Below, piece after piece: positions 13,234-63,811 of a DNA stretch of 64,000 bases. The position numbers were made by a program, and so were the translations under genes. Within the stretch, counting starts at the first letter, position 1. Every line of letters starts with the position of its first letter. Origin of the DNA: Acidobacteriota bacterium (GTDB lineage Bacteria > Acidobacteriota > Blastocatellia > RBC074); assembly GCA_018269055.1 (NCBI GenBank), contig JAFDVI010000015.1, positions 618 through 64,617 of the forward strand, given 5' to 3'. Under the pieces are notes generated by a model. The model saw nothing but the letters and a program-made list of their open reading frames with translations. It was not told where the DNA came from and did no database searches.

Positions 13234-13301
13234 TTTGGGTTTGCACCTCCAGGTGGATTATGACGGAAGGTACGCAACCATAGGAAGGATCAGATGTTCG
13301 A

Positions 13302-13523
13302 TCACAGAGATTCTTCAGCGGATTTGGCTCGGAAGGAATCCTTCAGCAAGAGGTAAAGGATCACCGCCAACACGGCCAGGAAGAGGAAGATGACGATGAT
13401 TTTGATAATGCCGAAGATAGTCGTCGCAACGATCAAACCGCGCCGGACGCTTTCCGTTACGAGCAAAGCAGTCGTTACGATGGAAGCTACGGTGGCGATC
13501 AGTTTGAAAATCCAGGCAAACAT
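13302..13523 (-). CDS. Small two-TM membrane protein
   Basis: 73 aa with two hydrophobic helices. An AGGAGA RBS is embedded in the 3' end of the upstream DUF4097 gene, with a 2-nt intergenic gap. Confidence 0.5.
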   Translation of the reverse strand: MFAWIFKLIATVASIVTTALLVTESVRRGLIVATTIFGIIKIIVIFLFLAVLAVILYLLLKDSFRAKSAEESL

Positions 13524-13525
13524 CC

Positions 13526-42306: not shown

Positions 42307-43809
42307 ATGAATCTGAAGCTTCGTCATTTGCTATCGGTATTTTTTCTGTCGTGTGGGATGGCGATTGCCGCGGCAGCTCAGAAGTGGGATACGCCGGGAA
42401 TTGATTCCGCGATGAACGAAGCCATGAAGTTCTGGCAAACGCCCGGCGCAGCCATCGTCGTCGTCAAAGGCGATCAGATCATCTTTATCAAAGGCTATGG
42501 CGTGCGCGATCTGAAAACCAAAGAGTCGGTCACGCCCGACACGGTGTTTGCCATCGGTTCGACGACCAAGGCGTTCACCACCGCCGCAATGGCGATGCTG
42601 GTGGATGAAGGCAAAATGAGTTGGGACGATCCGGTCAGAAAACATGTGCCGTACTTTCGGTTGAGCGATCCGTTGGCCAATGAAAACGTCACGATGCGCG
42701 ACATTGTCACACATCGCACGGGGCTGATTCGTCACGATTTGCTGTGGTACGGCTCGCCGTGGAGCAGGGATGAAATCGTTCGTCGCATTGGCTTTGTTCC
42801 GTTGACTTACGGGTTCCGCACGACGTTTCAATATCAGAACATCATGTTTTTGACCGCCGGGTTGGCCGTCGGCAACGCATCGAGTTTAAGCTGGGAAGAG
42901 TTTATTCAGCGCCGAATCTTCGATCCGCTGGGAATGAAATCGGCCAGCCTGAGCACTTCCATCGCTGAAAAGTCACCGGATCACGCGACGCCGCATCTGA
43001 AGCGCGGCGCGACGATTGAACCCATGCCGTGGCGAAACATTGACAACGTCGCTCCGGCGGGTTCAATCAATGCCAGCGTCCGCGATTTATCGAACTGGCT
43101 TCAATTGCAACTGAACGAAGGTGTGGTTGACGGTAAACGGCTGATTTCCTCCGCAAACGTCCGAGAAATGCACACGCCGCAGATGGTCATCCGCAACGAA
43201 GGCCGCTGGCAATTATTCTTTCCTCCGTCCGAAACCTCGCAACTGAGTTACGGGCTTGGATGGTTCATCAATGATTACCGAGGCCGAAAACTGGTGATGC
43301 ACGGCGGAACGATTGACGGATTCCGCGCCAGCATCGTGCTCGTACCCAGTTCAAAGCTCGGCGTCGCCGTGCTGACAAATCTGAACGGCACACAGATGCC
43401 CGAAGCGGTTTGTTACAGCGTCGTGGATTTGCTGGAAGCGCTGCCGAAAAGGGACTGGAACGGGTACATCTCGGAACAGGCAAAACAACTCGAGGCCGAA
43501 GCCACCCAGGCTTTCCTAACTCGATTGGGAGCCAGAAAGAAAGACACCAAACCTTCGCGCGAGCTTGCGGCTTATGCGGGGACGTATGAAGATGCGGCGT
43601 ACGGAAAAGCCGACATCTCTCTGCTTGACGGCGGGTTGGTTTTGAATTGGAGCAGTTTCAACGCCAAACTTCAGCATTTCCATTTCGACACATTTTCGAT
43701 TCTGGAACCGCGTCTGGCCACAGAGCAGGTGCAATTCCAGCTTGGCGCGGATGGCGAAGTAAGCGGGCTGAATTTTCAGGGAATTCGATTTCAGAAAAAA
43801 TCTAAATGA
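42307..43809 (+). CDS. Beta-lactamase-family serine hydrolase (class C or esterase-like) with a C-terminal beta-domain
   Basis: An AAGGA RBS precedes the start. Signal peptide MNLKLRHLLSVFFLSCGMAIAAAAQ. SxxK is present as IGSTTKAF. The YxN motif is YQN. Confidence 0.75.
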   Translation: MNLKLRHLLSVFFLSCGMAIAAAAQKWDTPGIDSAMNEAMKFWQTPGAAIVVVKGDQIIFIKGYGVRDLKTKESVTPDTVFAIGSTTKAFTTAAMAMLVDEGKMSWDDPVRKHVPYFRLSDPLANENVTMRDIVTHRTGLIRHDLLWYGSPWSRDEIVRRIGFVPLTYGFRTTFQYQNIMFLTAGLAVGNASSLSWEEFIQRRIFDPLGMKSASLSTSIAEKSPDHATPHLKRGATIEPMPWRNIDNVAPAGSINASVRDLSNWLQLQLNEGVVDGKRLISSANVREMHTPQMVIRNEGRWQLFFPPSETSQLSYGLGWFINDYRGRKLVMHGGTIDGFRASIVLVPSSKLGVAVLTNLNGTQMPEAVCYSVVDLLEALPKRDWNGYISEQAKQLEAEATQAFLTRLGARKKDTKPSRELAAYAGTYEDAAYGKADISLLDGGLVLNWSSFNAKLQHFHFDTFSILEPRLATEQVQFQLGADGEVSGLNFQGIRFQKKSK

Positions 43810-43832
43810 AGTACCCAACAGGAGGACGTGCG

Positions 43833-44468
43833 ATGAGAGCATTTAAGCAATTGACACGATTACTGATCGTGTTTGGCATTTGCGTTTTCTGCAACGCCGT
43901 TTTGGCGGCTGATGAAGGAAAAGTCTCGACCGAAGAAAGGGCGAAAGTGATCAAACTGTTGAAAGATTCTCAAGCCGAAACGCTGGCCGCGCTGGAAAAA
44001 CTCAGCGACGAACAATTGAAGTTCAAACCTGCGCCGGAGCGTTGGTCGGTTATCGAAGTCGCCGAACACATTTTGCTGGCCGAAGGATTGTTGTTCGGAG
44101 CGGTGCAACGAGCCATTGCCACGGCTCCGAATCCCGACTGGGAAGCCAAGACCAAGGGCAAAACGGAATTTCTGGAAGACGTTCTGGCAGGTCGCAAAGG
44201 CAAAGCGCAAGCGCCGGAAAGCATCGTTCCTTCCGGCAAGTTGACGCGCCAGGAATTGATCACCAAATTCAGGGAAGCGCGCGCCAAAACCATGAAGTTT
44301 ACGGAAGAAACGCAAGTGCCACTCAAAGCGCACACGATGGATCATCCCTTTCCGGTTTTCGGCACTTTGAATGCGTATCAGTGGTTGATTTACATTCCGC
44401 TGCACAACATCCGCCACAACAAACAAATCGCCGAAGTGATGGCCGATCCGAATTTTCCGAAGAAATAA
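43833..44468 (+). CDS. Secreted DinB/YfiT-like (DinB_2) family protein
   Basis: An internal Met after GGAGGA gives the signal peptide MRAFKQLTRLLIVFGICVFCNAVLA. A His triad is spread across ...VAEHILLAE...LHNIRHN. Confidence 0.55.
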   Translation: MRAFKQLTRLLIVFGICVFCNAVLAADEGKVSTEERAKVIKLLKDSQAETLAALEKLSDEQLKFKPAPERWSVIEVAEHILLAEGLLFGAVQRAIATAPNPDWEAKTKGKTEFLEDVLAGRKGKAQAPESIVPSGKLTRQELITKFREARAKTMKFTEETQVPLKAHTMDHPFPVFGTLNAYQWLIYIPLHNIRHNKQIAEVMADPNFPKK

Positions 44469-44474
44469 AAGTAA

Positions 44475-44541
44475 GGTTCAGAGTTCACGCTTCAGCGTGT
44501 TTTGGTTTTGGTGAACTCACGCTGAAGCGTGAACTCTGAAC
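44475..44541. terminator. Long perfect palindrome (24-bp arms) with a nested hairpin and T-tract, acting as an intergenic terminator-like element
   Basis: gttcagagttcacgcttcagcgtg ... cacgctgaagcgtgaactctgaac are exact reverse complements. The inner cacgcttcagcgtg is itself a hairpin and is followed by ttttggttttgg. Confidence 0.6.
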
Positions 44542-44558
44542 TTATTTGAGGAGAGCCA

Positions 44559-45113
44559 ATGTCTTTTACGCGAATGGATCAAAGCACCGCTGCCGATTGG
44601 ATGATAATCGGCGGAGAAGTCGCCAAACGACAGGCGCAGATGTCCGTAGTAATCAAAGCAATGTTGAAACAGTTGGAAGATCAGGTAGACGGGTTTTCGA
44701 TGAACCAGCTTCAGCATGCATTGCAGACGGCGACGCGCGCGGTTCGCGATGGCGCTTCGGAGGAAATGATTGTTGCCGCGCTTTGCCATGACATCGGCAA
44801 AGTCATTTCAGTCATCAATCATCCGGCCATCGCCGCGGAGATTTTGAAGCCGTATGTGTCGAACGAAACTTATGAAATCGTCCGCACACATCAGGACTTT
44901 CAAGGCAAACACTATTACCAGCATTTCGGGATGGATACGAATTTACGGCAACAGCACGAATCTCAGCCGTGGTACCCGCTCGCCAAAAAATTCACCGACG
45001 AATGGGATCAAGCCGCGTTCGATCCGAATTACGAAACGCTGCCGCTGGAATATTTCGAGCCGATGATTGATCGGGTGTTTTCAAAAGAACTGGTCAGAGT
45101 TGCGGGGAAGTAG
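44559..45113 (+). CDS. HD-domain phosphohydrolase
   Basis: H...HD motif (LQHALQTA ... ALCHDIGK), with additional His/Asp ligands downstream. An AGGAGAG RBS precedes the start. Confidence 0.7.
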   Translation: MSFTRMDQSTAADWMIIGGEVAKRQAQMSVVIKAMLKQLEDQVDGFSMNQLQHALQTATRAVRDGASEEMIVAALCHDIGKVISVINHPAIAAEILKPYVSNETYEIVRTHQDFQGKHYYQHFGMDTNLRQQHESQPWYPLAKKFTDEWDQAAFDPNYETLPLEYFEPMIDRVFSKELVRVAGK

Positions 45114-45126
45114 CAATAGCAAACAA

Positions 45127-45160
45127 TAACAGGTGCGAAGAAACCTCTTCGCACCTGTTA
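45127..45160. terminator. Intergenic hairpin between the convergent HD and emrB genes
   Basis: A perfect 14-bp stem, aacaggtgcgaaga / tcttcgcacctgtt, with a 4-nt loop. Confidence 0.5.
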
Positions 45161-45263
45161 TTGCGCCCTTTCAGGGCTTTTGGTGTTTATATTGCCTTTC
45201 CCAGTGCGATGCACTGGGCTGCCATATTTTGCCCCGTTGGGGCTGAACAGATGCTGGAATTTA

Positions 45264-46856
45264 TCAATGCGCGGCAATCGCGCCGCCTGACTTGGCTTTT
45301 TTCAGCAGCAACACCAGCGGCAAACAGAACAAACATCCCAGCGCCATCCAGCGGAATGTGTCCACGTACGCCAGCAAACTTGCCTGTTTCACCAGCATTC
45401 CGTTGAACGCGGCATAGGCTTGCGGCAAGGACAAACCGTGCTGCATCGCCTGCAGTTTCTGTTGGAAGACGGAGTTGTACTGCGTGAAGTTCGCCGCCAA
45501 CGTTGTTTGGTGGGCTTGCGTGTTGCGCGAAACGGCGGTCGTCACCAGCGAAATGCCTACGCCCGCGCCGATGTTGCGCACCAGGCTGAAAATGCCCGTC
45601 GCATTGCCAATCTCTTCATTTTTCAATGTGCCCATCGCCGTCGTCGTCAGCGGCACGAAGATCAAGCCCATCGCAATTCCCTGAATCACATTCGGATAAA
45701 CAAAGTGCATTCCGGTGACATCCAGCGTCAGATTGCCCAACAGGAAGCAGGTGATCGCCGTCATCGCGAATCCTGTGGCAATCAACGCGCGGCTGTCCAC
45801 GCGACTGATCAGCAACCCAACCAGCGGCATTCCGACCATTGCACCCAATCCACGCGGACTGAGCGCCATGCCGCTGTTCATCGCCGGATAGCCCAGCAAG
45901 CCTTGCAAAAATTGCGGCAAAATCGCCATTGGCGCATAGGCGATGATTCCCATGGCGGTGATCAGCATCGTGCCCAGCGCAAAGTTGCGATTGTGCAAAA
46001 TGCGCAGGTTGACGATGGGGTCTTTGGCGCGGAGTTCCCAAATCACGAAAGCGACAAGCGCCGCAATTGCAATCACTGATGCCCAGCGAATCCAGGCGGC
46101 TTCAAACCAATCATCCTGCTGTCCTTTGTCCAGGACGATTTGCAGCGTCGCCAACCCCAGCGCCATCAACCCAAAACCGATGGCGTCAATACGACCAGGT
46201 TTGGCATTTTTGATGTACGGCGGATCTTCCAGAAAGCGGCTCATCATCATCAGGGCGATGATCCCAATCGGAACATTGATGTAAAACACCCAGCGCCACG
46301 AATAATTATCCGTGATCCAACCGCCCAGCGTAGGCCCTATGACTGGCGCAACCACCACGCCCAAGCCATAAATCGCCATTGCCATGCCGCGTTTTTTCGG
46401 CGGAAAGGATTCCAGCATGACTGCGTTGGCGATGGGTTGCAGCGCGCCGCCGCCTACGCCTTGCAGCACGCGCGCGAAAATCAAAATCGGCAAACTGGTG
46501 GCAATGCCGCACAGGAATGAAGACAGCGTGAAGATGACCACGCAGGTCATCAAAAAGCGTTTGCGTCCGAAAAATTTAGAAAACCAGGCGCTCGCCGGCA
46601 GCACGATGGCGTTGGAAACCAGATAGCTGGTCAGCACCCAGGTCGCTTCGTCTTCGCCCGCGGCCAGATTGCCCGCAATGTGCCGCAGCGAAACGTTGAC
46701 GATGGTCGTGTCCAACACTTCCATAAACGTCGCCAACATCACGGCCACCGCGATCAACCACGGATTGAAGCTCGGCTTCCACGGCTCCGGCGTTACGACA
46801 GGAGCGGGAACCGTTGCCTCACTCGTATATTCTGTCATTGTTGCATCTGCGCTCAT
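45264..46856 (-). CDS. emrB: MFS multidrug efflux transporter, DHA2 (EmrB/QacA) family, 14 TMS
   Basis: The DHA2 N-terminus is WLIAVAVMLATFMEVLDTTIVNVSL, with motif A G..RKR.L. The protein is 530 aa. A GGAGGG RBS precedes the start. Confidence 0.85.
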   Translation of the reverse strand: MSADATMTEYTSEATVPAPVVTPEPWKPSFNPWLIAVAVMLATFMEVLDTTIVNVSLRHIAGNLAAGEDEATWVLTSYLVSNAIVLPASAWFSKFFGRKRFLMTCVVIFTLSSFLCGIATSLPILIFARVLQGVGGGALQPIANAVMLESFPPKKRGMAMAIYGLGVVVAPVIGPTLGGWITDNYSWRWVFYINVPIGIIALMMMSRFLEDPPYIKNAKPGRIDAIGFGLMALGLATLQIVLDKGQQDDWFEAAWIRWASVIAIAALVAFVIWELRAKDPIVNLRILHNRNFALGTMLITAMGIIAYAPMAILPQFLQGLLGYPAMNSGMALSPRGLGAMVGMPLVGLLISRVDSRALIATGFAMTAITCFLLGNLTLDVTGMHFVYPNVIQGIAMGLIFVPLTTTAMGTLKNEEIGNATGIFSLVRNIGAGVGISLVTTAVSRNTQAHQTTLAANFTQYNSVFQQKLQAMQHGLSLPQAYAAFNGMLVKQASLLAYVDTFRWMALGCLFCLPLVLLLKKAKSGGAIAAH

Positions 46857-46879: not shown

Positions 46880-48286
46880 TTATTTCACTTTGACTTCCGG
46901 TTCGACGGACATTCCAGGGCCCAGCGGAAAGGTTTTGTCCACGGGGTCGGTGAAGACGATTTTGACCGGGACGCGCTGCACAACTTTGACGTAATTGCCA
47001 GTGGCATTTTCCGGCGGCATCAAACTGAACGCCGCGCCGCTGCCGGCCTGGATGCTTTGCACTTTGCCCGCGAAGACTTTGCCCGGATAGGCATCCACTT
47101 TGATTTCGACCGGTTGGCCGGGACGCATCAGCGTCAGTTGCGTCTCTTTGAAATTGGCAATGACGTACAGCTCATCCGGCACAAGCGCCAGCAACGGTTG
47201 GCCAGGCGCGAGCAGCGTGCCTTCGGCAAAGCCTTTTTTGGTGACGGTGCCTGCTTCCGGCGCATAAATTTTGGTGTGCGATAAGTCCAGTTCGGCTTGT
47301 GCGACGGCGGCTTCGGCCTCGGCAATGTCCGCGCTGGCGGTGTCCACCTGCGCGCGACTGACGGCAATTTGTTGCGGCGCGGAATTGGCTTCGGCCAATT
47401 TGCCAGCGGCTTCGCCGACCATCGCCTGGCTTTCACCGACTTGGGATTGCGCTTGGCGCAAGGTTTCCTGCGCGGCGCGCTCCGAAGCCTGCAATTCCGC
47501 AACCAGCGATTGTGCGCTAGTAACGGCGGCTCTGGCGGCTTCGACCTTCGCGGCGGAACTTCTGGCCGCAGCCTGCGCGGTGTCGAACTGCTGGCGCGAA
47601 ACTTCGTCTTTGGTAAACAGTTGTTGATAGCGTTGCGCGTCTGCATGGGCGCGCACGGCTTCGGCTTCGGCGGACGTGAGTTGTGCCCTGGCCTGTGCGA
47701 CGTTGCTGATTTGCGTTGTCACCTGCGCTTGCGCTTTGGCGACCTGATTGCTGTAAGCATTCAACTGCGCTTCGCGCGATTGCACGTTGGAGCGCGCCTG
47801 ATTCAACCCAGCGGCGGCCTGTTGCACGCTGGCCGACGTGGTTGCGCGCGTCAATGCGACATTCATTTGCGCGGTTTTTTGCCGAGCCTGTGCGGCCTGC
47901 AACTGCGCTTTGGCTTGGGCCAGCCGATTTTCGTAATCGCGCGAATCAATTTCCAGCAACAGGTCGCCTTTGTTTACGTGCTGGTTGTCTTTGACTGCCA
48001 CGCTGGTCACGTATCCGCCGACTTTCGGACTGAGCTGAACAACGGAACCTTCGATGAAGGCGTTGTCGGTTGTTTCATACGCGCGCCCGTGCAGGTAATA
48101 CCGAAGCCCGACGGTCAGCAGTACCAGTGCGATGATTGCCAGCGCAACTTTGACGATCGAGCGTTTGAACAATGGCGTTTTCTGTTCCGTGATTTCGGGT
48201 TCCTTCATGGCTGGTTTCGGTTCGTCTGATTTCGTTTCGCGTTTCACGACGGATGGTAATTTCAGTGATTCAATAGTTGCAGACAT
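46880..48286 (-). CDS. emrA: HlyD/EmrA-family membrane fusion protein with an extended Ala/Gln-rich coiled coil
   Basis: A single N-terminal TM (VALAIIALVLLTVGL) is followed by the biotinyl-lipoyl-like VKDNQHVNKGDLLLEID. A very long AQ-rich helical hairpin and a C-terminal beta-barrel domain follow. The start is the internal MSATI after GAAGGAGGG. Confidence 0.85.
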   Translation of the reverse strand: MSATIESLKLPSVVKRETKSDEPKPAMKEPEITEQKTPLFKRSIVKVALAIIALVLLTVGLRYYLHGRAYETTDNAFIEGSVVQLSPKVGGYVTSVAVKDNQHVNKGDLLLEIDSRDYENRLAQAKAQLQAAQARQKTAQMNVALTRATTSASVQQAAAGLNQARSNVQSREAQLNAYSNQVAKAQAQVTTQISNVAQARAQLTSAEAEAVRAHADAQRYQQLFTKDEVSRQQFDTAQAAARSSAAKVEAARAAVTSAQSLVAELQASERAAQETLRQAQSQVGESQAMVGEAAGKLAEANSAPQQIAVSRAQVDTASADIAEAEAAVAQAELDLSHTKIYAPEAGTVTKKGFAEGTLLAPGQPLLALVPDELYVIANFKETQLTLMRPGQPVEIKVDAYPGKVFAGKVQSIQAGSGAAFSLMPPENATGNYVKVVQRVPVKIVFTDPVDKTFPLGPGMSVEPEVKVK

Positions 48287-48363
48287 TGTTCCCTCCTTCA
48301 AAATCCCAATCTAAAGTGTGCGATTCGCCCTTACTGCGTGCGGGCTTCCGCAGCGTCCCGTTC

Positions 48364-49797
48364 TTACCAACGAAATTCTTCAGCTTTACCCAGCGCAGCG
48401 GCCAGATTGATGCGCGCGGAGTTGTACGCGGTCAGCGCGGCGACCTGCGCATTGCGCGCGTTTTCCAGCGCCGTTTGCGCGTTGAGCACTTCGATGTTGT
48501 CGCCGACGCCTGCCGAAAACCGATCGCGAGATTGTTCCAGTTCACGTTCGGCAAGTTTGACTTGCTGTTCGGCCGAAGCCACCTGTTTGGCAGCGGTCGC
48601 CAGCGTCTGCAGCGTGTTGCGCACGTCCTGTTCGACTTGCTCCCGCGTGTCGTTCAACCGCAACTCGCTTTGCGTTTCGCGGCTTTTGGCGGATTTGATC
48701 CGGCCATAGGTCGCGCCACCATTGAATATCGGCACGTTCATGCGCACGCCGACACTGCGCGTGGGCAGCGCCAGTTCGCTCGGCAGCACGCCGCTGCTGC
48801 CGTAATTGGCAAAAAACTCTATGGACGGATACAACTCCGCCTGGGCTGCCTTGCGTTCGTAACTTTGTTGTTTGACTTCCTGTTCGGCGATGGCGATTTC
48901 CACGCGATCCTGCGCGGCGGTTTGCAGCGCGACTTCCACAACCGGCGGAGCCTGCGCACGATAGCGTAGCGCGTCCGTCAGAACTGGGCGACTGTTGAGC
49001 GGCAGTCCCGCGATGCGCAGCAAATTCAGAATCGCCGTTTGCGCATTGGTTTGCGCTTCGGCCAAACGAACTTCCTGATCGGCCTGGCGTGTTTCGGCTC
49101 GCGTCACGTCCACGCCGGTGGCGATGCCTGCGGTTTTCTGGTTGTTGGCCAGTGTGAACAGGCTTTTGGCCAAATCCAGATTCGCTTGCGCGGTTTCAAC
49201 GTCGCGCTGAGAGCGTAGGGCATTTAAGTAAGCCAGTGAAGCAAGAGACGCCACCTGTTGGCGCGCCAGTTTTTCCTGCAAATTGGTAAGCTCTGTATTC
49301 GCTTTGGCCGCTTGAAAATTGCGAATGGAACTCAGGTTGAACAGCGATTGCGCGAATTGAAATCGCGCGTCAAAGGAACTGAATGGCCCGATGAATGTTG
49401 TCGGCACCGGAAAGATTTTGGGCGTCAACCCCTGCGCAGCCAGGTTGACGGTGTTGTTGGATTGCGAAACCGTTCCCGCAACATTCGGCAGCAAAAATGC
49501 CAGCGCCTGCATTTTTTGGCCGAGCGATTCGTTGCGTCGTTCGCGGGCGAGTTTTGTATTCAAATTGTTATCAATTGCGAATTGAATGGCTTGTTGCAGA
49601 CTCAAAGCCGTGGCGTCACTCGTCTGGCCCGTATTGCCTGAATGATTGGCCACGGCCTGAGCCTGATTGTTGAGCGGTGTCGAAACATCCACAGCGGCAC
49701 TCTGCGCCTTTGCTTTCACTCCTTGCAGCGTCAGTGTTACCGCAACCACCAGCCCAACAATAAACTTCACCCCAGCAGTTTGTTTTCGATCCCACAT
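48364..49797 (-). CDS. TolC-like outer membrane efflux protein (OEP family)
   Basis: The start MWDRKQTAGVKFIVGLVVAVTLTLQGVKAKAQ is a signal peptide preceded by AAGGAGGGGGG. Two OEP repeats are present (QQAIQFAIDNNLN...; LRIAGLPLNSRPVLTD...). The ORF track extends the frame to 50184 without a stop. Confidence 0.8.
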   Translation of the reverse strand: MWDRKQTAGVKFIVGLVVAVTLTLQGVKAKAQSAAVDVSTPLNNQAQAVANHSGNTGQTSDATALSLQQAIQFAIDNNLNTKLARERRNESLGQKMQALAFLLPNVAGTVSQSNNTVNLAAQGLTPKIFPVPTTFIGPFSSFDARFQFAQSLFNLSSIRNFQAAKANTELTNLQEKLARQQVASLASLAYLNALRSQRDVETAQANLDLAKSLFTLANNQKTAGIATGVDVTRAETRQADQEVRLAEAQTNAQTAILNLLRIAGLPLNSRPVLTDALRYRAQAPPVVEVALQTAAQDRVEIAIAEQEVKQQSYERKAAQAELYPSIEFFANYGSSGVLPSELALPTRSVGVRMNVPIFNGGATYGRIKSAKSRETQSELRLNDTREQVEQDVRNTLQTLATAAKQVASAEQQVKLAERELEQSRDRFSAGVGDNIEVLNAQTALENARNAQVAALTAYNSARINLAAALGKAEEFRW

Positions 49798-50139
49798 TAT
49801 CCCCCCTCCTTCTTTGCTTGTTCGTTCTTTTCTTTGTGGGTCTGTTTGGTGTGACGCCCGATGCGCGGCAGTGCAGGCAATTTCTCTTATGACTTCTTTG
49901 GTCATAATGTTGGTTGCTGTTGGCGTCACTCCCGCCCCGATCATCTCCGCCAACAACTGCCTGCCTGCCGCGTCAATAAACGTCACCTCGGTCAAATCCA
50001 TGCGGATCACGCTTGAGTGCGTAGCACCTTCAACCTCATCCCAGCATCGCTTCATTTCACCTACCCACTCACCCGCCAGACATCCTTCCACTTTCAATGT
50101 CGTCGCTTCGCCGTCTGATTGTTGCGTGATCCGCATCAT
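49798..50139 (-). CDS. STAS-domain (anti-sigma-factor-antagonist-like) ORF. It has no stop codon of its own and continues in-frame into the tolC-like gene.
   Basis: MMRITQQSDGEATTLKVEGCLAGEWVGEMKRCWDEV..HSSVIRMDLTEVTFIDAAGRQLLAEMIGAGV matches the STAS pattern (LxGxL...VxxDLxxVxFIDSxG). A GAGGAGAAGG RBS lies upstream of ATGATG. The gene is immediately downstream of the sigma-54 promoter. Confidence 0.4.
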
Positions 50140-50167
50140 TTGCCGCCTTCTCCTCGACCAGACAAAT

Positions 50168-50184
50168 GGCAACGTTGGTGCCAA
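50168..50184 (-). promoter_or_regulatory. Sigma-54 (-24/-12) promoter driving the STAS-tolC-emrA-emrB operon
   Basis: The minus-strand sequence TGGCAC-CAACG-TTGC is a perfect match to the TGGCAC-N5-TTGCW consensus. It lies ~15-20 nt upstream of the STAS ORF RBS. Confidence 0.7.
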
Positions 50185-50255
50185 AGCATACGCAACAAAA
50201 GCGGGGAATTAAGCTGCTGAACCAGCTTGAGTTATAAGGATTGCGTTGATCTGGA

Positions 50256-50332
50256 AATGTCGAAGTGTCGAATTAAGAGTCGTGATTTCGACACTATTCG
50301 ACACTTGGCTGAAGTTAGATGTCGAAATGTCG
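50256..50332. promoter_or_regulatory. Array of TGTCGAA / TTCGACA direct and inverted repeats, a candidate upstream activator sequence for the adjacent sigma-54 enhancer-binding protein
   Basis: aTGTCGAAgTGTCGAAttaagagtcgtgatTTCGACACtaTTCGACACttggctgaagttagaTGTCGAAaTGTCGtc. It is centred ~100 bp upstream of the -12 element. Confidence 0.55.
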
Positions 50333-52474
50333 TCAGGAACCGTTTGTTTGGGAGCGGTTGATTCCGAGCTTGTTCATTTTGGAAATCAGCGTGGTGCGTT
50401 TCAGTCCCAACCGAGCCGCTGCGCCATTTGCGCCGCCAACGATCCCGTTGGTTTCGCGCAACGCCTGCAAAATGGCGTTGCGTTCACTATCCGCCAGCGT
50501 AACCGTTGCCGGCTTGGCGAGGGAGTTGAGGGTTGCAACGGAAGGCGCTGTGCTAATGGGGTTGGCATCTTCAGGTAGCGCAGGACCACCAGGCGGAATT
50601 TCCAACTCTGCTCCGCGCGACAAAATGACTGCGCGCTCGATGAAATTTTCCAGTTCGCGCACGTTGCCCGGCCAGGGATATTGTTCCAGCCGCGCGATGG
50701 CATCGGCAGGAATGGTTTCGATCTTTTTGCGAAAGCGGCGCGCGAACTTTTGGGCGAAAAACGCGACCAACAATGGAATGTCGCCACTCCGCTCGCGCAG
50801 CGGCGGCAAATGAATCGGAAAGACATTCAAGCGATAAAACAAATCGCTGCGAAATTGCCGCTCGGCGACCAGTTGCTCCAAATTGGCATTGGTGGCGGCA
50901 ATCAATCGCACGTCCACTTTTTGCGTGCGCGTGCTGCCCAGGCGTTCAAATTCGCCTTCCTGTAAAACGCGAAGCAGTTTGGCCTGCAACTCCAACGGAA
51001 TGTCGCCGACTTCATCCAGAAACAGCGTGCCTTTGTGCGCCAATTCAAACCGGCCAATGCGTTGCGAAATCGCGCCGGTGAATGCGCCGCGTTCGTGTCC
51101 GAACAATTCGCTTTCCAGCAAGCCGGTCGGAATCGCTGCGCAATTCATTTTAACCAGCGTGCGTTCGCGGCGGTCGCTCAAACTGTGAATGGCGCGCGCA
51201 ATCAATTCTTTGCCGGTGCCGGTTTCGCCCAAAATCAACACCGTCGAATCGGTCGGCGCAACGATCTCGACTTGTTTGAACACATTCGCCAGCGAAGGGC
51301 TTTGGCCGATGATTTCGGCGAAGTTGTACTGGCTTTGGATTTCTTCTTCCAGGTAGACCTTTTCGCTGGTCAGCTTGTTTTTCAGGGCCTCGATCTGGTT
51401 GAACGCCAGCGCGTTTTCAACGGCGATGGCGACCTGACGCGAAATCTGGCTGAACAGGTCGGCATCCGCTTGGCTAAATGCGTTGTCTTGCAAACTGCTG
51501 ACAGCCAGAATTCCCAGCACGTGGTCATGAGAAATCAGCGGCGCGATGCAGCTTGATTGAATTCCCTGGGCCGCGATGCGCGCGGTGAATTCCGAATGGA
51601 ACTGGCTGCGATCTTTTTGATTGATGATAATGGTTTCGCGCCGATTGACAGCTTGTTCACCGGCGGTTTCCGAAAGCGGAACGACTTCGTTTTCTTCCAG
51701 ATAATCCCAGTTGCGCGACGAATCCAGCGCGTGAACGCGCAGGCTTTTGGTCTCTTCTTCGTACAAAGCAAGGATAGCAAAGTCGTGATGCAACACTTGG
51801 CGCAAGCGCGTGGAGACGGTTTGCAACAGTTTTTTGAGGTCGAGAATCGTGACGACGGCGTTGTTGACTTCCAACAGCAATTGCGAGCGGTCGCGTTCTG
51901 AAGCCAACGCCTGTTGCGCAGTTCGCGCCTGCTCGAAGTTCAGCGCATTGTCTACGGCAATGGCGACCTGGCGCGTGACTTTTTCCAGAAAGGTGACATC
52001 GCATTCGTTGTAAGCGGATTCGTCCAAACTGCCGAATCCCAATACTCCCAAACTTCGCCCAACAGAATTCATCGGCAGCATGCAAAACGATTTGATTCCG
52101 CTTTGTTGCAACCGTTCCAGAACCTGCGGGTACGCCGAAAGTTGATCGGTGTGAGTGACAAGCAGCGGTTTTTGCGACAGCCAGACCTGTCCGGCTGGGC
52201 TTTCGTGCAAGCCGAGTTCCAGGGACTCTTTTTTGGGAAGCGCGACGCTGGATTGCAGCGAATGCAACCGCATGGTGTTCCGGTCGGCATCGTACAGCAC
52301 CACGCTGATCAGGTCGCATTGCACGACCTGATTGATTTGTTGCGACAGGGCTTGTAGCAACGAAGGCAAATCGCGATGCGCGGTGATAGCTTCCGACACC
52401 GCCAGCAGCGCGCGGTAGCGGCGCAACTGGTAATCAGAAGATGGCGTTGGCGCGGAAGCACTCATGGAAAGCAT
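50333..52474 (-). CDS. Sigma-54-dependent transcriptional activator, FhlA-like (GAF-GAF-AAA+-HTH)
   Basis: There are two GAF-like regions. The AAA+ Walker A is LILGETGTGKE and the sigma-54 contact loop is ESELFGHERGAFTGA. A C-terminal Fis-type HTH is present. The ATG sits 2 nt after the degT-like stop. The ORF track extends the frame to 52573. Confidence 0.85.
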   Translation of the reverse strand: MLSMSASAPTPSSDYQLRRYRALLAVSEAITAHRDLPSLLQALSQQINQVVQCDLISVVLYDADRNTMRLHSLQSSVALPKKESLELGLHESPAGQVWLSQKPLLVTHTDQLSAYPQVLERLQQSGIKSFCMLPMNSVGRSLGVLGFGSLDESAYNECDVTFLEKVTRQVAIAVDNALNFEQARTAQQALASERDRSQLLLEVNNAVVTILDLKKLLQTVSTRLRQVLHHDFAILALYEEETKSLRVHALDSSRNWDYLEENEVVPLSETAGEQAVNRRETIIINQKDRSQFHSEFTARIAAQGIQSSCIAPLISHDHVLGILAVSSLQDNAFSQADADLFSQISRQVAIAVENALAFNQIEALKNKLTSEKVYLEEEIQSQYNFAEIIGQSPSLANVFKQVEIVAPTDSTVLILGETGTGKELIARAIHSLSDRRERTLVKMNCAAIPTGLLESELFGHERGAFTGAISQRIGRFELAHKGTLFLDEVGDIPLELQAKLLRVLQEGEFERLGSTRTQKVDVRLIAATNANLEQLVAERQFRSDLFYRLNVFPIHLPPLRERSGDIPLLVAFFAQKFARRFRKKIETIPADAIARLEQYPWPGNVRELENFIERAVILSRGAELEIPPGGPALPEDANPISTAPSVATLNSLAKPATVTLADSERNAILQALRETNGIVGGANGAAARLGLKRTTLISKMNKLGINRSQTNGS

Positions 52475-52475
52475 T

Positions 52476-53789
52476 TTAATAAGGCGGCGTTGATTCCAGC
52501 AACGCGCGCTGGGCGCGCGACATTCCTTGAATCCGGATGCGCTCGTCTTCGTACCCGACCAACTCCGCCACATTGGTTTTGATTTTCCAGATGGCGGTCA
52601 ACACATCATCTACGTCTTCATCGGTTCCCAGAAAAATCTGGTGCGGCAACCAGACGGATTCTTCGTAGCCCGCGCGCACGGCAACGGGGCAATCAAATTC
52701 GCGCTTGCTCTGTGCCCACGAAGGGAACTTTTCCGCCGCAAATTCAAACAGCGACGATTTGTACACCGCTTCATAAAACCGCCCATCGCAATGGACGCCT
52801 TCGGCATTGAGCGCGGCGACAAACGCGTTGCGGTGAATGCCGCCAAAAGCTTTCGGGTGAAATTTGAACACGTAATGATAACTGGCTTGGCGTGTGATGC
52901 GCGGATCGCGCGGCAGCAAACTGATGCCTTCGATCTGGCGCAAGCCTTCTTCCAGAAGTTGGGTTTGCCGTTCCCGTTGCAGCGTTTGCGCTTCCAACCG
53001 TTCAAGCTGCGCCAGCAAAATGGCCGCCTGGAATTCCGTCAGGCGGTAGTTGTGGCCGAGCGCCGGTTCGCCTTTGGATTCGCGGCGCGGCGGTCGCCCG
53101 CAATTGGCCAGGCGAATGACCTGATCGGCCAGGTTGATGTCGCTGGTGATGACCGCGCCGCCTTCGCCAGCGGTCATCAGCTTCGAGGTTTGGAAGGAAA
53201 AACTTCCGGCGTGACCGATGGAACCGGCACCCTTGTCTTCTTTATTGAAGCCGCGCCATTGGCCGCCGTGCGCGTGCGCGCAATCTTCCAGCACGAACAA
53301 ATTGTGTTTTGTCGCAATCTCCAAAATTGCATCCATATCCGCGAAGCGAAATCCCAAATGCACGGGAATGACGGCACGCGTGCGTTCGGTGATGGCGGCT
53401 TCAATCAAATTCACGTCCAGGCAGTAACTATTCGGATCAACGTCCACGAACACGGGCGCGGCTCCGGCAAACAGTACCGCCGCCGCAGTGCCTTCCCAGG
53501 TGTAGGCCGGAACGATGACTTCATCGCCTGCGCCAATGCCTGCGGCTTGCAGCGCCAGTTCCAGTGAAACGGTTCCGTTGGTGACGGCGATGCCATATTT
53601 CGCGCCGTGCGCTTCGGCGAAGCGTTTGCCGAATTCGCGCGCGTAATCGTTGGGGCAGGGATATCCGCCCCAGTTGCGACTTTCCAAAACGGTTTCGAGC
53701 GCCCGAGCTTCGCGCTGGTCATAAATCGGCCAGGCGGTGAACGGAGTTGTGCGGACGGGCGAGCCTCCGCGTAAAGCAAGTTGAGCCAT
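52476..53789 (-). CDS. DegT/DnrJ/EryC1/StrS-family PLP-dependent sugar aminotransferase
   Basis: PLP-lysine region GSFSFQTSKLMTAGEGG. AYTWEGTAAAV and the overall 437-aa architecture are typical of DegT. Confidence 0.8.
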   Translation of the reverse strand: MAQLALRGGSPVRTTPFTAWPIYDQREARALETVLESRNWGGYPCPNDYAREFGKRFAEAHGAKYGIAVTNGTVSLELALQAAGIGAGDEVIVPAYTWEGTAAAVLFAGAAPVFVDVDPNSYCLDVNLIEAAITERTRAVIPVHLGFRFADMDAILEIATKHNLFVLEDCAHAHGGQWRGFNKEDKGAGSIGHAGSFSFQTSKLMTAGEGGAVITSDINLADQVIRLANCGRPPRRESKGEPALGHNYRLTEFQAAILLAQLERLEAQTLQRERQTQLLEEGLRQIEGISLLPRDPRITRQASYHYVFKFHPKAFGGIHRNAFVAALNAEGVHCDGRFYEAVYKSSLFEFAAEKFPSWAQSKREFDCPVAVRAGYEESVWLPHQIFLGTDEDVDDVLTAIWKIKTNVAELVGYEDERIRIQGMSRAQRALLESTPPY

Positions 53790-60134: not shown

Positions 60135-61637
60135 TTACCGTCGGCGCGGATTCAAGCGCGGCCTTTCCGGTTGTGCGCTGCGCTGGAAAACTTCCTTGAC
60201 GGGTTTCCAGGCTCCTTGCGACGCGAAGGGAACATATTCAAAACCTCGCTGGAACGGATCATCGTGCAGCGTTTTGGTGTAATCAATTCTCAACCCGGAA
60301 TAGATGGTGGCCGCAATGTCTTCGTTGACGACCGGACGGCCTTCCGACCAGCCAGGATCTTGCACGGCGAACCCGTCGCTGGTGGTGGAACCGATGACGC
60401 GACCGCCGCTGACCCCGCCGCCTGCTAAGCTTACGAACTGCTGGAAATAATGATCGCGTCCGGCGCCGCTGTTCAATCCCGGCGTCGAGCTTCCGTTGGC
60501 GGTTCTGACGGTGCGGCCAAATTCACCCATCCAGACAACCAGCGTTTCATCCAGCAGCGTGCCGCCGTTGACGCCGGGCGTTGCGGCGAGGTCTTTCAGC
60601 AACTCGCCAACGCCCTTGTCGAATTGTCGAGCCGGATTGTAAATCCCGCCAGCAGTGTAAATGTTTGTGTGGTTATCCCATCCGCCAATGCTGATCATGA
60701 CGGCTCGCGTACCAAGATTGGATTTGACCAGATTGCGCGCCGTCAAACAGGCATTGCCAAAACCGGTCTGTGCGTTATTTACGCCATACCGCTGCGTTTC
60801 AGCAGCGGTCAGTCTGAACACTGCATCCACTTCCGGGTTGTACATCATGCCCTTGCTTTGTTGGTAGAAACTGTCCATATCCACGACAGAATCTCCAAAT
60901 GGCGAATTGGTGCGATTTTCGCCATCCAATTCCTGCAACATTTGGTAACGACGATCAAATGTGGTCTGCCCGGCAAAGTTCGTCAGGTTACCTAAGCCCC
61001 CAGTCGAACCGTTGGCTGCGAATGGCGTATAGCGTGCGTTGAAATAGCCCGAGCTGACGACGTTCCCGCCATTGAGCGAAACGAACCCGGGAAGTTTTTG
61101 CGCCGCAGTGCGTTGCGATTCAAATTCGCGCGCGACGACGGCGCAGATATTCGGCGCGATTTTGCCCATTAGCGACGTTGGGTTACGAGCAATCTGCGTC
61201 CAGATTTGTTGCAGCCCATGCACCAATGCCGGAGCGCGAACGCTGCGTATGGTGGTGATGTATTGAATCTGCGATGCGATGGTCGGCATCAACCCTTTCG
61301 GAAACAACACACCATTGCCAATTACTTCAGGTGCGAAATCCGCCGGCGTCCATGAACCGACCTTCAGATCGAACGTGTCCACGTGGCTGGGCGCGCCCTG
61401 CATGTGGATGTAAATCAAGTTGCGAGCCTGCCCATACAGTTCCGGTGCGACGGCAGCGTCGTCAGCTTTCGCCTCTTTGGCGAACATCGGAACGACGAAG
61501 GAACCGGCAACGCCTGTACCCGCAATTTTGAAAAATTCACGGCGTCCCAGGACCGGACCTCCGAAGAGTCCGGAATTGACTGGCCGCAACGGTTCGCAAA
61601 CTTCGCAAGAATGATCAGGATGAAGATGATCTTTCAT
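60135..61637 (-). CDS. DUF1501-family protein with a twin-arginine signal (sulfatase-like fold)
   Basis: An internal Met (MKDHLHP) follows a GAGGAGA RBS. Tat motif RREFFKIAGTGVAGSFV. The conserved DUF1501 C-terminus is GGW.NH...GAGRDH. Confidence 0.75.
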   Translation of the reverse strand: MKDHLHPDHSCEVCEPLRPVNSGLFGGPVLGRREFFKIAGTGVAGSFVVPMFAKEAKADDAAVAPELYGQARNLIYIHMQGAPSHVDTFDLKVGSWTPADFAPEVIGNGVLFPKGLMPTIASQIQYITTIRSVRAPALVHGLQQIWTQIARNPTSLMGKIAPNICAVVAREFESQRTAAQKLPGFVSLNGGNVVSSGYFNARYTPFAANGSTGGLGNLTNFAGQTTFDRRYQMLQELDGENRTNSPFGDSVVDMDSFYQQSKGMMYNPEVDAVFRLTAAETQRYGVNNAQTGFGNACLTARNLVKSNLGTRAVMISIGGWDNHTNIYTAGGIYNPARQFDKGVGELLKDLAATPGVNGGTLLDETLVVWMGEFGRTVRTANGSSTPGLNSGAGRDHYFQQFVSLAGGGVSGGRVIGSTTSDGFAVQDPGWSEGRPVVNEDIAATIYSGLRIDYTKTLHDDPFQRGFEYVPFASQGAWKPVKEVFQRSAQPERPRLNPRRR

Positions 61638-61672
61638 TTTGTCTCCTCTCTTTTTCAGCCGTTTTGGCCAGC

Positions 61673-63811
61673 TTAGTAATTGAACAGGAAATCCACTTTG
61701 TTCACCAACACCCATTGCAGACTTTCAATCGCCCCCTGTTTTCCCATCGAGGTGAAATAGGGAAGAACCTTTTGGATTTCGCTTTGGCGCGGATTTCGGG
61801 ACAGGGTGTTCAAGTAAAGTTCCATAATGATCTGTTCGTTGGTCAACCCTTGCGTTTCCATCAACCGCTTCACGGTCGAAACAATCTTTTCGGCGTTGTA
61901 ACCAGGAATCGGAGCGATATATCCATCCGAATTGTTGCCAGCATCATTGCTGGAATTGTTGGCGACATAGCGAATCCGGCGGCTGATGAAATCGTTGTTC
62001 ATCATATTCAACGCTTGCAGGATGGACGAATCGCCCAGACGCAGGTTTAGATCGCGATTGCCGCGCAGAAACGTGTTCAGGATGTTGGCCGACGAACCAT
62101 TTTGTTGGCCAAAACGCGGTTCGCGCGGTTCGGGCAGTTGCATCGCCCACTGAATTTCCCGCTTTTTCGCTCCCACTTCGTCAATGATCGGGAAGCCAAG
62201 CATTCGCGGGGAAACGACGGTTCCGTTGATGGTGACGGCGTTCGTCACTGGAGGCAGGTTGGTCGCCTTGATGACGGCATCGTGCAACTCTTCGGCGTCC
62301 AGACGGCGGGCAAATTTTCGCGCGTACAGCGGAACGTATTCCAGTTTCCAGGTGCCGGGATATTTCGACGAAAGCTGGTAGGTGGACGATTGAACGATGG
62401 TGCGAATGATGTAGCGCAGGTTGAAGTTGTTGTTGCTGAACTCCTGTGCCAACGCCTCGAGCAATTCGGCGTTGTTCGGTTGCAGCACCCATCCGTCCGG
62501 CATTTGCGCATCCGGATCAAGCCGCGCCAGATCGAAAGTGCCGGATGGGGAAACCAGGGCTTCGACCATCAATTTTTCCCACAGGTAATTGACGGCCGCG
62601 CGAGCAAACTGCGGATCTTGTGTAATGTATTTGGCCAGCACGGTTCGCCGGTCTTCGCCGTTGGCGACGACACCGCGATTGCCGAACATATATTTTGGCG
62701 CGACGCTGCGGACATTGCCCATCGGCAACCGCGAACTGCGATTGCCGGTGGTGGTATTCAAGTCATATTCGCCGGACGTTGCCTCGGTGATGGTGTATTT
62801 CTGAAGGTTCGTCCCGGCAGCAACGGTTTGACGACGTGTGCGCGCAAAAAAGGCGGCCATTCCCCAGGCATCCGCGCGCGTGGCTTTGGATCCCCATAGA
62901 TTGACGGCGTCCAGGTGCCCCGCTCCGTCATGGCAAAGCAGGCAATCCATTGAACTCAACCCCAAAAACACCTGAGCGGTATTCACAGCGTAACCGTCAT
63001 AGGTGTCCTGCGCAGGTCCCATCGGAACAAATCCGCCGACGATGAAATTAGTCTGGCCGTCTAAGTAGCTGTCGCCCCGCGCGGTGATCATTTCCGTGGC
63101 CATTTGGGCGTAGCTCTTATTCTGTTCGATGGCATCGTGTATGAATTTGTAAAAGGCTTCGCTGCCGCCGATGAACCGGTTGATGTTGTTTGCCGTTGAA
63201 TTGCTCTTGTACAAATCGGCAAAGAACATCGTCCATTTGTCCACGAACTCCGGGGAGTTGCTCAGCGCGTCAATCAGAATGTCGCGCTTGTTCGGATTTT
63301 GGTCTTTCAGGAAGTTGGTCACATCCGTCGGCGAAGGAATGCGGCCTGTCAGGTCTAGCGTGACGCGGCGAATGAATTCTTCGTCCGTGCAAAGTGGGGC
63401 GGATTCGACTCCGGCGTTTTGCATCTTGGAGAAGATCAAATCGTCCACGAAATTTTTGTGCGGCATGTTTTGCGGCGGAACCAGAGCGATTCCTTCCTGG
63501 TCAAACCGTGCTGCCACGATTTCGGTGAGTTGTGAAACCTGGTTGCGATGCCGAGCCGCCACGTCCTGGTAATCCATCGGCGATTTCACATAGCTGCAAT
63601 CATCGGCATTGACGGTGGGCTGGGTGGTTTGCCTGAAAATTCGGCGGGGCGATTTTTGGCCGAAGGTGTCCAAAACTCCAAATCGGTCTAGCGCCAAAAT
63701 CAATCCAACTAAAACAAAAGCCAGCACCGCCAACTTTTTGGTCAGCGCAACTGGCCAGTTTCGTTTCGAGCCTCTGCTCGAACCATCCCCATGACCTTTC
63801 AATACCATATG
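61673..63811 (-). CDS. DUF1549/DUF1553-domain protein (PSD1-type), the partner of DUF1501
   Basis: An internal Met (MVLKGH) follows GGGAGG. An N-terminal membrane anchor is present. A CLLCHDG (CxxCH-like) motif is present. The layout is typical of the DUF1549...DUF1553 architecture. The gene lies immediately upstream of the DUF1501 gene. Confidence 0.7.
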   Translation of the reverse strand, partial: HMVLKGHGDGSSRGSKRNWPVALTKKLAVLAFVLVGLILALDRFGVLDTFGQKSPRRIFRQTTQPTVNADDCSYVKSPMDYQDVAARHRNQVSQLTEIVAARFDQEGIALVPPQNMPHKNFVDDLIFSKMQNAGVESAPLCTDEEFIRRVTLDLTGRIPSPTDVTNFLKDQNPNKRDILIDALSNSPEFVDKWTMFFADLYKSNSTANNINRFIGGSEAFYKFIHDAIEQNKSYAQMATEMITARGDSYLDGQTNFIVGGFVPMGPAQDTYDGYAVNTAQVFLGLSSMDCLLCHDGAGHLDAVNLWGSKATRADAWGMAAFFARTRRQTVAAGTNLQKYTITEATSGEYDLNTTTGNRSSRLPMGNVRSVAPKYMFGNRGVVANGEDRRTVLAKYITQDPQFARAAVNYLWEKLMVEALVSPSGTFDLARLDPDAQMPDGWVLQPNNAELLEALAQEFSNNNFNLRYIIRTIVQSSTYQLSSKYPGTWKLEYVPLYARKFARRLDAEELHDAVIKATNLPPVTNAVTINGTVVSPRMLGFPIIDEVGAKKREIQWAMQLPEPREPRFGQQNGSSANILNTFLRGNRDLNLRLGDSSILQALNMMNNDFISRRIRYVANNSSNDAGNNSDGYIAPIPGYNAEKIVSTVKRLMETQGLTNEQIIMELYLNTLSRNPRQSEIQKVLPYFTSMGKQGAIESLQWVLVNKVDFLFNY

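Follow-up and report, generated by a model that had tools for sequence, protein, structure and literature searches.

The 64,000-nucleotide stretch of acidobacterial DNA analysed here (the window: contig JAFDVI010000015.1, positions 618 to 64,617) carries on its minus strand an operon for a tripartite efflux pump, which lies directly downstream of the gene for a sigma-54 enhancer-binding protein (EBP) with two GAF domains. In order, the operon encodes a STAS-like protein, a TolC-like outer-membrane factor (OMF), an EmrA-like adaptor and an EmrB/DHA2 permease, and it ends at a terminator. With a probability of about 0.8, transcription of the operon begins near 50157, from a sigma-54 promoter, and is activated by the adjacent tandem-GAF protein, which would occupy four half-sites of an upstream repeat array, reach the polymerase by DNA looping and drive promoter opening with ATP. 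Judged from the sequence, a dedicated, inducible efflux module of an acidobacterium, probably from the Blastocatellia/Chloracidobacterium lineage, is the best explanation of the locus. An earlier note, made from the letters of the window, had claimed such sigma-54/activator wiring. The claim is now supported by phylogenetic footprinting, by the arrangement in one related locus (L081) and by the co-variation of the activator's recognition helix with the repeat motif.

The activator gene (50333..52474, minus) encodes 713 aa, and the GAF-GAF-AAA+-HTH (helix-turn-helix) architecture with Walker A and GAFTGA that had been read from its sequence is borne out by Pfam matches and exact motifs. GAF and GAF_2 matches fall into two stretches (GAF1, ~51911-52414; GAF2, ~51416-51841). 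They are followed by the AAA+ sigma-54 interaction domain (Sigma54_activat, PF00158, 50810-51313; 246 bits against a cut-off of 20.2), the AAA+ lid (AAA_lid_14, 50600-50797) and the Fis-type HTH domain (HTH_8, PF02954, 50366-50500, residues 659-703; 26.5 bits against a cut-off of 22). In the translation, Walker A reads GETGTGK (51209-51229), Walker B reads LFLDEVGD and the GAFTGA loop is exact (51071-51088). The sequence features by which a bacterial EBP is recognised are present, namely PF00158 with both Walker motifs, GAFTGA and a C-terminal Fis-type HTH. The solved AAA+ domains of the EBPs FleQ, NifA, ZraR, NtrC1 and PspF match the AAA+ core of the activator with E values from 1e-84 to 1e-60. 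The mechanically called open reading frame (ORF) reaches further, to 52573, where its extra part overlaps the upstream DegT gene; orthologues, which are 72-90% identical, begin to align at residue 2-4 of the protein that starts at 52474. A second EBP gene was searched for across the window, and none was found.

The designation of this protein as FhlA-like, also made earlier, holds for the domain architecture alone. The FhlA equivalog (NF011958) is its best NCBIfam match, but the score of 644.5 bits stays below the cut-off of 830. Genes for formate dehydrogenase-H or hydrogenase were found neither near the activator in the window nor in the orthologous loci L081, L082 and L085.

Between activator gene and operon lies an intergenic region of 193 nt (50140-50332). 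Its promoter element is of the sigma-54 -24/-12 type, TGGCAC-N5-TTGC (TGGCACCAACGTTGC, minus strand). It had been placed at 50168..50184; it was found at 50169-50183, and it is the sole exact match within the window. The element stands 30 nt before the ATG at 50139, is oriented towards the operon and has its GG and GC doublets 10 nt apart. Transcription is predicted to start near 50157 (minus), and the Shine-Dalgarno sequence GAGGAGAAGG with the ATGATG start of the STAS-like ORF (50134..50155, minus) forms a block that is conserved in the alignment of relatives. A consensus scan of the 193 nt found no sigma-70-type site, and a search of 49900-50500 against Rfam, aimed at leader RNAs and riboswitches, had no hits at E up to 1.

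Upstream of the promoter, five exact TGTCGAA/TTCGACA heptamers occur within 69 nt (50258-50326), all in the intergenic region and here read on the minus strand. Counted from the predicted transcription start, half-site 1 (TTCGACA, extended ATTTCGACAT, 50320..50326) lies at about -166 and begins 6 nt past the activator stop codon. Half-site 2 (TGTCGAA, 50297..50303) follows at about -143, 22-23 nt from half-site 1, half-site 3 (GTGTCGAAAT, 50287..50293) at about -133 and half-site 4 (AATTCGACAC, 50266..50272) at about -112. The array had been described as spanning 50256..50332, and five copies are present in it; the fifth, however (TTCGACA, 50258..50264, about -104), is lineage-specific, being missing from L001 and not kept in relatives. 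The distances fit the range at which sigma-54 activator sites are expected (~80-200 bp upstream), and the half-sites are, by sequence, candidates for an upstream activator sequence (UAS). Half-sites 3 and 4 form a palindrome, GTGTCGAAAT-N10/11-A(A/T)TTCGACAC (inverted repeat I5/I2), and it is proposed that the array consists of two pairs of GTGTCGAAAT-type half-sites with about 22 bp within each pair. The window as a whole holds 25 copies of the heptamer, where 14.2 would be expected. In 200 mononucleotide shuffles, a 70-nt stretch never held five 6-mer cores, the maximum being four, seen once.

About midway between array and promoter (~50215-50235) there is a partly conserved A/T-rich block, which reads CAATAACTATCAT in most relatives and CTTATAACTCAAG in the window. 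A DNA-bending protein that helps looping might bind there.

Comparison with related loci shows which parts of the intergenic region are kept. A genome scan with the activator protein retrieved mostly generic EBPs through their AAA+ domain, and only L001 was orthologous; in a match from Terriglobia (L003), the sequence ends soon after the activator, which leaves the downstream region uninformative. In L001, with an activator that is 89% identical, intergenic conservation is limited to half-sites 1-4, a TGGCAT-N5-TTGC element and the Shine-Dalgarno/ATG block. Both L001 and L002 (CAZXHW010000408.1 and CAZXHW010000639.1) are labelled 'uncultured Heliomicrobium sp.', and they share the synteny of the window with 89-90% identical activator and operon. 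Because this synteny is acidobacterial, the label, which is that of a Firmicute, probably reflects mis-binning or mislabelling.

Three more loci (L081, L082 and L085) were reached through the contexts of TolC orthologues, and they keep the gene order activator, STAS-like protein, OEP, adaptor and permease. Their promoter elements read TGGCAT-N5-TTGC (L081), CGGCGC-N5-TTGC (L082) and TGGCCC-N5-TTGC (L085), with TCGACA/TGTCGA arrays 100-150 nt upstream. L081 is particularly informative, as a Peptidase_S15/PepX_C gene (3349-5286) is inserted there between activator and operon. Both array and promoter precede the STAS-like gene, and both are missing from the DNA that follows the activator gene. 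Since the array stays with the operon, it is an element of the pump promoter and not one of the activator gene's 3' end. For this reason the idea that the array might form a hairpin or terminator at the 3' end of that gene was rejected; a T-run terminator is, moreover, absent there on the minus strand.

A metagenome scan with the STAS alignment yielded 35 further loci, in which the gene order was found by tblastn to hold. In all of those with enough upstream DNA, a GG-N10-GC element precedes the start of the STAS-like gene by 40-46 nt, or by 29 or 63-69 nt in a few cases; overall, it is present upstream of the STAS-like gene, as a rule at 40-73 nt, in about 45 related loci, again in all that have sufficient upstream DNA. 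The close clade keeps TCGACA at -202, TGTCGA at -180 and -172, and TCGACA at -150, with the 22-nt spacing within each pair. When 24 close-clade upstream regions were aligned, the only conserved blocks were ATTTCGACAC, GTGTCGAA-GTGTCGAAAT, ATTTCGACAC, YGGCAY-N5-TTGCC and GAGGAG...ATGATG. The degree of conservation was expressed as pairwise column identity among eight divergent close-clade loci. Half-sites 1 to 4 reach 0.89, 0.73, 0.93 and 0.96, respectively, and the promoter including its N5 reaches 0.69, whereas half-site 5 drops to 0.35 and the spacers, which include the stretches between array, promoter and ribosome-binding site, to 0.39-0.55. Conservation of the array in orthologous loci had been named beforehand as a check, and the outcome speaks for the array: half-sites 1-4 are kept while the spacers have diverged.

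More distant relatives of the STAS-like protein (36-45% identity) belong to a sister module that is widespread in Acidobacteriota (L106-L116, L120-L123, L125 and L126; e.g. L115 4165-12096 and L121 5096-13175). Here, a single-GAF activator is transcribed divergently from an operon that comprises a CGGCAC-N5-TCGCT promoter and the genes for a STAS-like protein, OEP, an adaptor and an AcrB-type RND transporter. A profile search for the STAS-like family gave 702 protein clusters, and six of six further contexts sampled from it have the sister layout. The promoter lies at -41 to -73 in the four loci that are readable at the called start (L121, L122, L123 and L125). TGTCGA repeats are absent from the sister-module loci, where inverted repeats of the type GGTGCCAGCC/TTGGCAC form an array at the corresponding distance. 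The recognition helix of the activator differs as well, with KRSTLQFRMRKLGI in the distant clade versus KRTTLISRM(N/K)KLGI in the close clade. Operator motif and recognition helix thus change together while the architecture is kept, as is predicted for cognate pairs of activator and site.

Related motifs were also seen outside the pump loci. In Gemmata, activators whose helix is almost the same (KRTTLLSRMKKLGI) lie 6 kb from a GTGTCGAT/ATCGACAC array, which is followed after about 100 nt by CGGCACGCTCGTTGCA (CGGCAC-N5-TTGC). This promoter fronts a gene of the SIS (GKRP/MurQ-like) plus BadF/BcrAD-ATPase type (L005, 15230-15430 on the minus strand and 13290-15197; L004, ~14999-15143). The array may be the same type of operator serving a different regulon. 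In the window itself, a TGTCGA-N2-TGTCGA pair occurs at 60617-60630 (plus), followed by a weak sigma-54-like match, TGGTGCGATTTTCGCC, at 60908-60923 (plus). This combination was considered as a second regulated site and judged a chance occurrence, located inside a 526-aa ORF of the minus strand (60135-61715).

From these data the following course of activation is proposed. The tandem-GAF activator, encoded directly upstream of the operon and probably co-transcribed with a DegT-family gene, would bind the UAS through its C-terminal HTH_8 domain, at two half-site pairs between about -110 and -165. The GAF region, as the presumptive sensor, would detect a small molecule, upon which the AAA+ domain would assemble. 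The assembly would then contact, by DNA looping, the sigma-54 RNA polymerase that waits as a closed complex at 50169-50183. Subsequently, the GAFTGA loops and ATP hydrolysis would open the promoter, and transcription would proceed from ~50157 through the genes of the STAS-like protein, the TolC-like OMF, the EmrA-like adaptor and the EmrB/DHA2 proton antiporter to 45123-45164. As the outcome, the tripartite MFS pump would be essentially off until induced. The gene identities, the motifs with their positions and conservation and the co-variation across clades are observed, and from them we infer the binding, the sigma-54 dependence, the start site, the direction of GAF control, the pump substrate and the role of the STAS-like protein.

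Several points weigh against this reading. At least one exact TGGCAC-N5-TTGC arose by chance in 23 of 100 shuffled windows, so that the promoter match by itself is weak evidence; it is the position and the conservation of the element that carry the weight, not its agreement with the consensus. No terminator was found on the minus strand between activator gene and operon, and read-through could hence give some basal, sigma-54-independent expression. A six-frame translation of the 64-kb window contains no RpoN box, rpoN itself thus being absent from the window. The assignment of the array to the adjoining activator, and not to another DNA-binding protein, draws entirely on position, adjacency and co-variation. 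Finally, many of the related loci are close relatives, and their count overstates the number of independent observations; the argument is therefore built on about eight divergent close-clade sequences and the distant clade.

The chance matches and the absent terminator would both suit an operon that is transcribed by the housekeeping sigma factor, be it by read-through or from an unrecognised promoter, with the -24/-12 match being fortuitous. The sigma-70-type promoters of Acidobacteriota are poorly defined, and a consensus scan could miss one. Yet GG-N10-GC keeps its position and orientation across all related loci, including L081 with its intervening gene, and the intergenic sequence flanking it is not conserved. 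The divergent-activator clade also has GG-N10-GC, and since its activator gene points away from the operon, read-through is impossible there. Transcription independent of sigma-54 is accordingly regarded as very improbable.

Another possibility concerns the array. The TGTCGAA repeats might be the operator of a regulator encoded elsewhere, for example of a TetR/MarR-type efflux repressor, and the neighbouring activator might serve other promoters. Efflux operons are usually under local repressors, as with the MarR-type EmrR of E. coli emrRAB, the contact between activator and array is deduced, and the similar GTGTCGAT array in front of an unrelated gene in Gemmata indicates that the motif is not exclusive to pumps. 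However, no repressor gene is present in the conserved neighbourhood of any sampled locus; in particular, a MarR-type gene (EmrR/MprA-like) was found neither at the locus nor at orthologous loci, and the EBP gene adjoins the operon instead. The array occupies an activator position, 100-170 nt upstream of the promoter and without overlap with it, and a sigma-54 promoter, which depends on an activator, accompanies it in every case. The repeat motif also changes together with the recognition helix of the activator. A foreign regulator is thus considered quite unlikely, and activation by the adjacent tandem-GAF protein is preferred.

Even with promoter and activator as proposed, the primary purpose of the pump may differ from the presumed export of drugs or toxins: its cargo might be made by the cell itself, for instance a metabolite, a siderophore or a signal, with the GAF region monitoring the cell's own metabolism. 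DHA2/EmrAB-type and RND pumps commonly export endogenous compounds. In the window, moreover, the activator gene follows a gene for a DegT/DnrJ/EryC1-family aminotransferase (52476-53789, minus), a family that is frequent in sugar and secondary-metabolite pathways. The DegT stop is only 1 nt before the activator ATG at 52474, for which reason the two genes are probably co-transcribed. The same adjacency is seen again in L085, but it is absent in L081 and L082. No biosynthetic cluster is conserved beside the module, and the neighbours vary among loci. An endogenous substrate is considered rather unlikely.

The pump genes themselves are readily recognised, though not all reach the cut-offs of the more specific families. 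The order STAS, tolC-like, emrA and emrB that had been claimed earlier was confirmed, except that STAS and tolC form one ORF of 591 aa with no stop codon between them. Its distal part (48364..49839, minus) comprises a linker, an internal Shine-Dalgarno sequence (GAAGGAGGGGGG) with an ATG at 49796, a signal peptide and the TolC-like OMF, which matches Pfam OEP in two repeats (195.5 bits against 22) and TIGR01844 below the cut-off (159 bits against 225). The EmrA-like periplasmic adaptor of the HlyD family (46880..48301, minus) scores above the cut-offs of HlyD_D23, HlyD_3 and Biotin_lipoyl_2 in Pfam; its best NCBIfam match, TIGR00998, reaches 248 bits and stays under the cut-off of 390.8. Translation of the adaptor probably starts at the ATG at 48286, and the copy in a second assembly (L124) has been called at 468 aa. 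The EmrB-type DHA2 MFS permease (45264..46856, minus; 530 aa) clearly exceeds the cut-off of TIGR00711 (488.6 against 230.2) and also matches Pfam MFS_1. The operon ends at an intrinsic terminator hairpin of 19 pairs with a T-tail (45123-45164, minus), which is shared with a convergent HD-domain gene.

The first coding element of the operon is a STAS-fold domain of about 100 aa (49840..50139, minus). The Pfam match to STAS_2 is weak (E 6e-4; 20.3 bits, under the cut-off of 29.2), and the assignment is based mainly on structure prediction. An AlphaFold2 model, for which a family alignment of 40 sequences served as input, has a mean pLDDT of 86.6 and displays the order beta-beta-alpha-beta-alpha-beta-alpha, as in STAS domains. 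In a Foldseek search of this model against the PDB, SpoIIAA, RsbV and other anti-sigma antagonists come out on top (E ~1e-5, TM 0.65-0.75), with MlaB and SLC26-transporter STAS domains ranking next. When the PDB was searched with a sequence profile of the family, only marginal matches were obtained, to TM1442 and MlaB.

In SpoIIAA and RsbV the phosphorylated serine is part of a DSSG motif, presumably the one that aligns with Ser58 of SpoIIAA. The corresponding position reads D56-A-A-G59 in close-clade members, and most members of the distant clade have D-x-A-G. Genes for a HATPase-type anti-sigma kinase or a PP2C phosphatase were not found in any sampled neighbourhood. As the DSSG serine is replaced and no kinase or phosphatase gene is nearby, the protein lacks the defining regulatory feature of the antagonists. 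According to the model, it has the fold of the partner-switching antagonists without their usual phosphorylatable serine.

The fusion of this domain to tolC deserves separate attention. The single 591-aa ORF (48364..50139, minus) has been annotated by NCBI as one TolC family protein from an Acidobacteria metagenome-assembled genome (P0001), and an identical ORF is present in the separately built assembly L124 (810-2585). The frame is open in four lineages, with 591 aa in the window, 588 aa in P0002 and 599 aa in P0003/L085 (4209-6008); the L001 ORF (1335-3167), counted from an upstream TTG, has a listed length of 610 aa. The linker shows little conservation and varies in length, its indels stay in frame, and the internal Shine-Dalgarno-ATG and signal peptide are kept. 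The signal peptide, of Sec type (...VKAKA/QS), follows the internal ATG at 49796. The other relatives have the STAS-like gene as an ORF of its own, 94-121 aa long, that abuts or overlaps the OEP gene, with a 2-nt gap in L122 and L125 and a 49-nt overlap in L082. An assembly error was considered as the cause of the missing stop and appears unlikely, given the same ORF in a second assembly and a frame that remains open despite indels in three further lineages. The fusion may be a tolerated by-product, with most of the OMF being made from the internal start. Alternatively, signal peptidase may process the fusion, which would leave a membrane-anchored STAS domain.

The STAS-like gene heads each of these sigma-54 pump operons, whether MFS or RND, and it is always next to a GAF-type activator. 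The STAS-fold protein is an obligatory fifth member of the module, and it is translationally coupled to the OMF. The best guess for its role is a cytoplasmic accessory or a feedback subunit. A bolder proposal, put forward tentatively and regarded as doubtful, is that it represents a previously unrecognised functional component of tripartite efflux systems, acting as feedback partner or as transporter gate, and being made as a polyprotein in the lineage of the window. In the feedback variant, the STAS-fold protein could report the status of the pump or its substrate to the sigma-54 activator, by a phosphorylation-independent form of partner switching that acts on the EBP in place of an anti-sigma factor. 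In the gate variant, it could be the cytoplasmic gate of the transporter. In the polyprotein variant, signal peptidase would cut after ...AKA and generate a membrane-tethered STAS domain and a freed TolC-like channel.

Small STAS-like ORFs were observed in two other circuits as well. In a metagenome-assembled genome (MAG) of Planctomycetota with a PAS-type EBP (L008, 9089-9361), a sigma-54-type promoter, CGGCAC-N5-TTGC, is directly followed by a weakly similar STAS_2-like small ORF. In an unclassified 'bacterium' MAG with a 1825-aa EBP-containing ORF (L010, 9340-9823), such a weakly similar ORF directly follows the promoter TGGCAC-N5-TTGC. The downstream cargo is not a pump in either case. This hints that STAS-like first genes accompany EBP/sigma-54 circuits more generally.

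As to the wider surroundings, Pfam identifies efflux, DegT, HD, DinB and 3-hydroxyacyl-CoA dehydrogenase genes as the neighbours of the module in the window. An HD-domain (MIOX-like) gene and a DinB_2 gene (43806-45113, plus) converge on the operon terminator. Their synteny recurs in close relatives (L085, 9180-10461; L124, 5836-7116), and DinB-family genes are found again near the RND-type modules L121 and L122.

The earlier note had also called the arrangement uncommon. This is correct for the literature searched, in which the module of GAF-type EBP, STAS-like protein, OMF, adaptor and transporter is not commonly described, and no description of it was found. The module is, however, common in acidobacterial metagenomes, and sigma-54/EBP control of efflux operons has a precedent in Myxococcus (PMC9765219). 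Searches of the literature for efflux operons with STAS genes, or for MFS or multidrug pumps under sigma-54/EBP control, turned up only this Nla28 precedent and a 2025 survey of sigma-54 regulons. The survey mentions multidrug systems of the ABC type but not Acidobacteria, TolC, MFS or STAS (PMC12316311), and a comparative study from 2011 makes no mention of efflux (PMC3162934). In accounts of efflux regulation in P. aeruginosa, EBPs figure only indirectly (PMC11129675).

Efflux pumps are normally described under local repressors or two-component systems, whereas a family of acidobacterial MFS and RND pumps appears here to be gated by a ligand-sensing sigma-54 activator. With such gating, a tight off state and all-or-none induction would be expected. 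The locus further offers a candidate activator, operator (GTGTCGAAAT-N10-ATTTCGACAC) and promoter from a phylum in which hardly any transcription factors have been characterised. These could be of use for regulon prediction in soil metagenomes and possibly as the chassis of a biosensor for the GAF-sensed compound. The STAS-fold first gene, if functional, would be a new player in efflux-pump biology.

Among known systems, the E. coli EmrAB-TolC pump is the nearest counterpart of the pump itself, sharing the DHA2 permease, the HlyD-family adaptor and the TolC-family channel. In E. coli, the MarR-type EmrR/MprA represses emrRAB at a sigma-70 promoter, and tolC lies elsewhere in the genome. In the window, by contrast, the OMF gene is inside the operon, control would be by a sigma-54 activator, and a gene for a STAS-fold protein comes first. 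A small STAS gene at the head of a sigma-54/EBP operon is also known from the syp cluster of Vibrio fischeri. There, SypG drives the sigma-54 promoters and the first gene, sypA, encodes a STAS protein that is phosphorylated on serine via SypE and regulates polysaccharide production. The family described here is without the phosphorylatable serine at that position, and it heads efflux operons.

The STAS fold as such is shared with SpoIIAA, RsbV and MlaB. The first two differ from the present family in their serine, which is replaced by alanine here (D-A-A-G), and in having a partner kinase and phosphatase, no gene for which is nearby. MlaB, the STAS subunit of MlaFEDB, is an example of a stand-alone STAS protein serving a transporter as a cytoplasmic accessory subunit (PMC7367683). 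It differs in its partners, since no ABC ATPase gene is nearby in the present case and the STAS-like protein is accompanied by an MFS or RND pump and a sigma-54 activator.

The activator is most similar in its layout to FhlA and HyfR of Enterobacteria, one-component and ligand-gated regulators without a receiver domain, with which it shares the GAF-containing N-terminal sensor region, the AAA+ sigma-54 domain and the Fis-type HTH. The half-site core TGTC...GACA also resembles the FhlA site, which is of the type TGWC-RAWRAT-GWCA (PMC7658346). The FhlA site is, however, a 14-bp palindrome, while the half-sites of the window are longer (GTGTCGAAAT) and paired at about 22 bp between centres. The targets differ likewise, being efflux genes and not hyc, hyp or fdhF, and formate is unlikely to be the ligand.

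The closest regulatory precedent is found in Myxococcus xanthus, where Nla28-dependent sigma-54 promoters front the efflux operons MXAN989 (CusAB) and MXAN7147 (RND/ABC) (PMC9765219). Just as in the window, a sigma-54 promoter and tandem activator half-sites precede tripartite efflux genes. Nla28, however, is an EBP of the two-component response-regulator type with a broad starvation regulon, neither GAF-gated nor encoded beside a single pump operon. It belongs to another phylum, and no STAS-like first gene has been reported for its targets. The class of mechanism is a textbook one; what is new is that it is coupled to MFS and RND pumps and that a conserved gene for a STAS-fold protein comes first in the operon.

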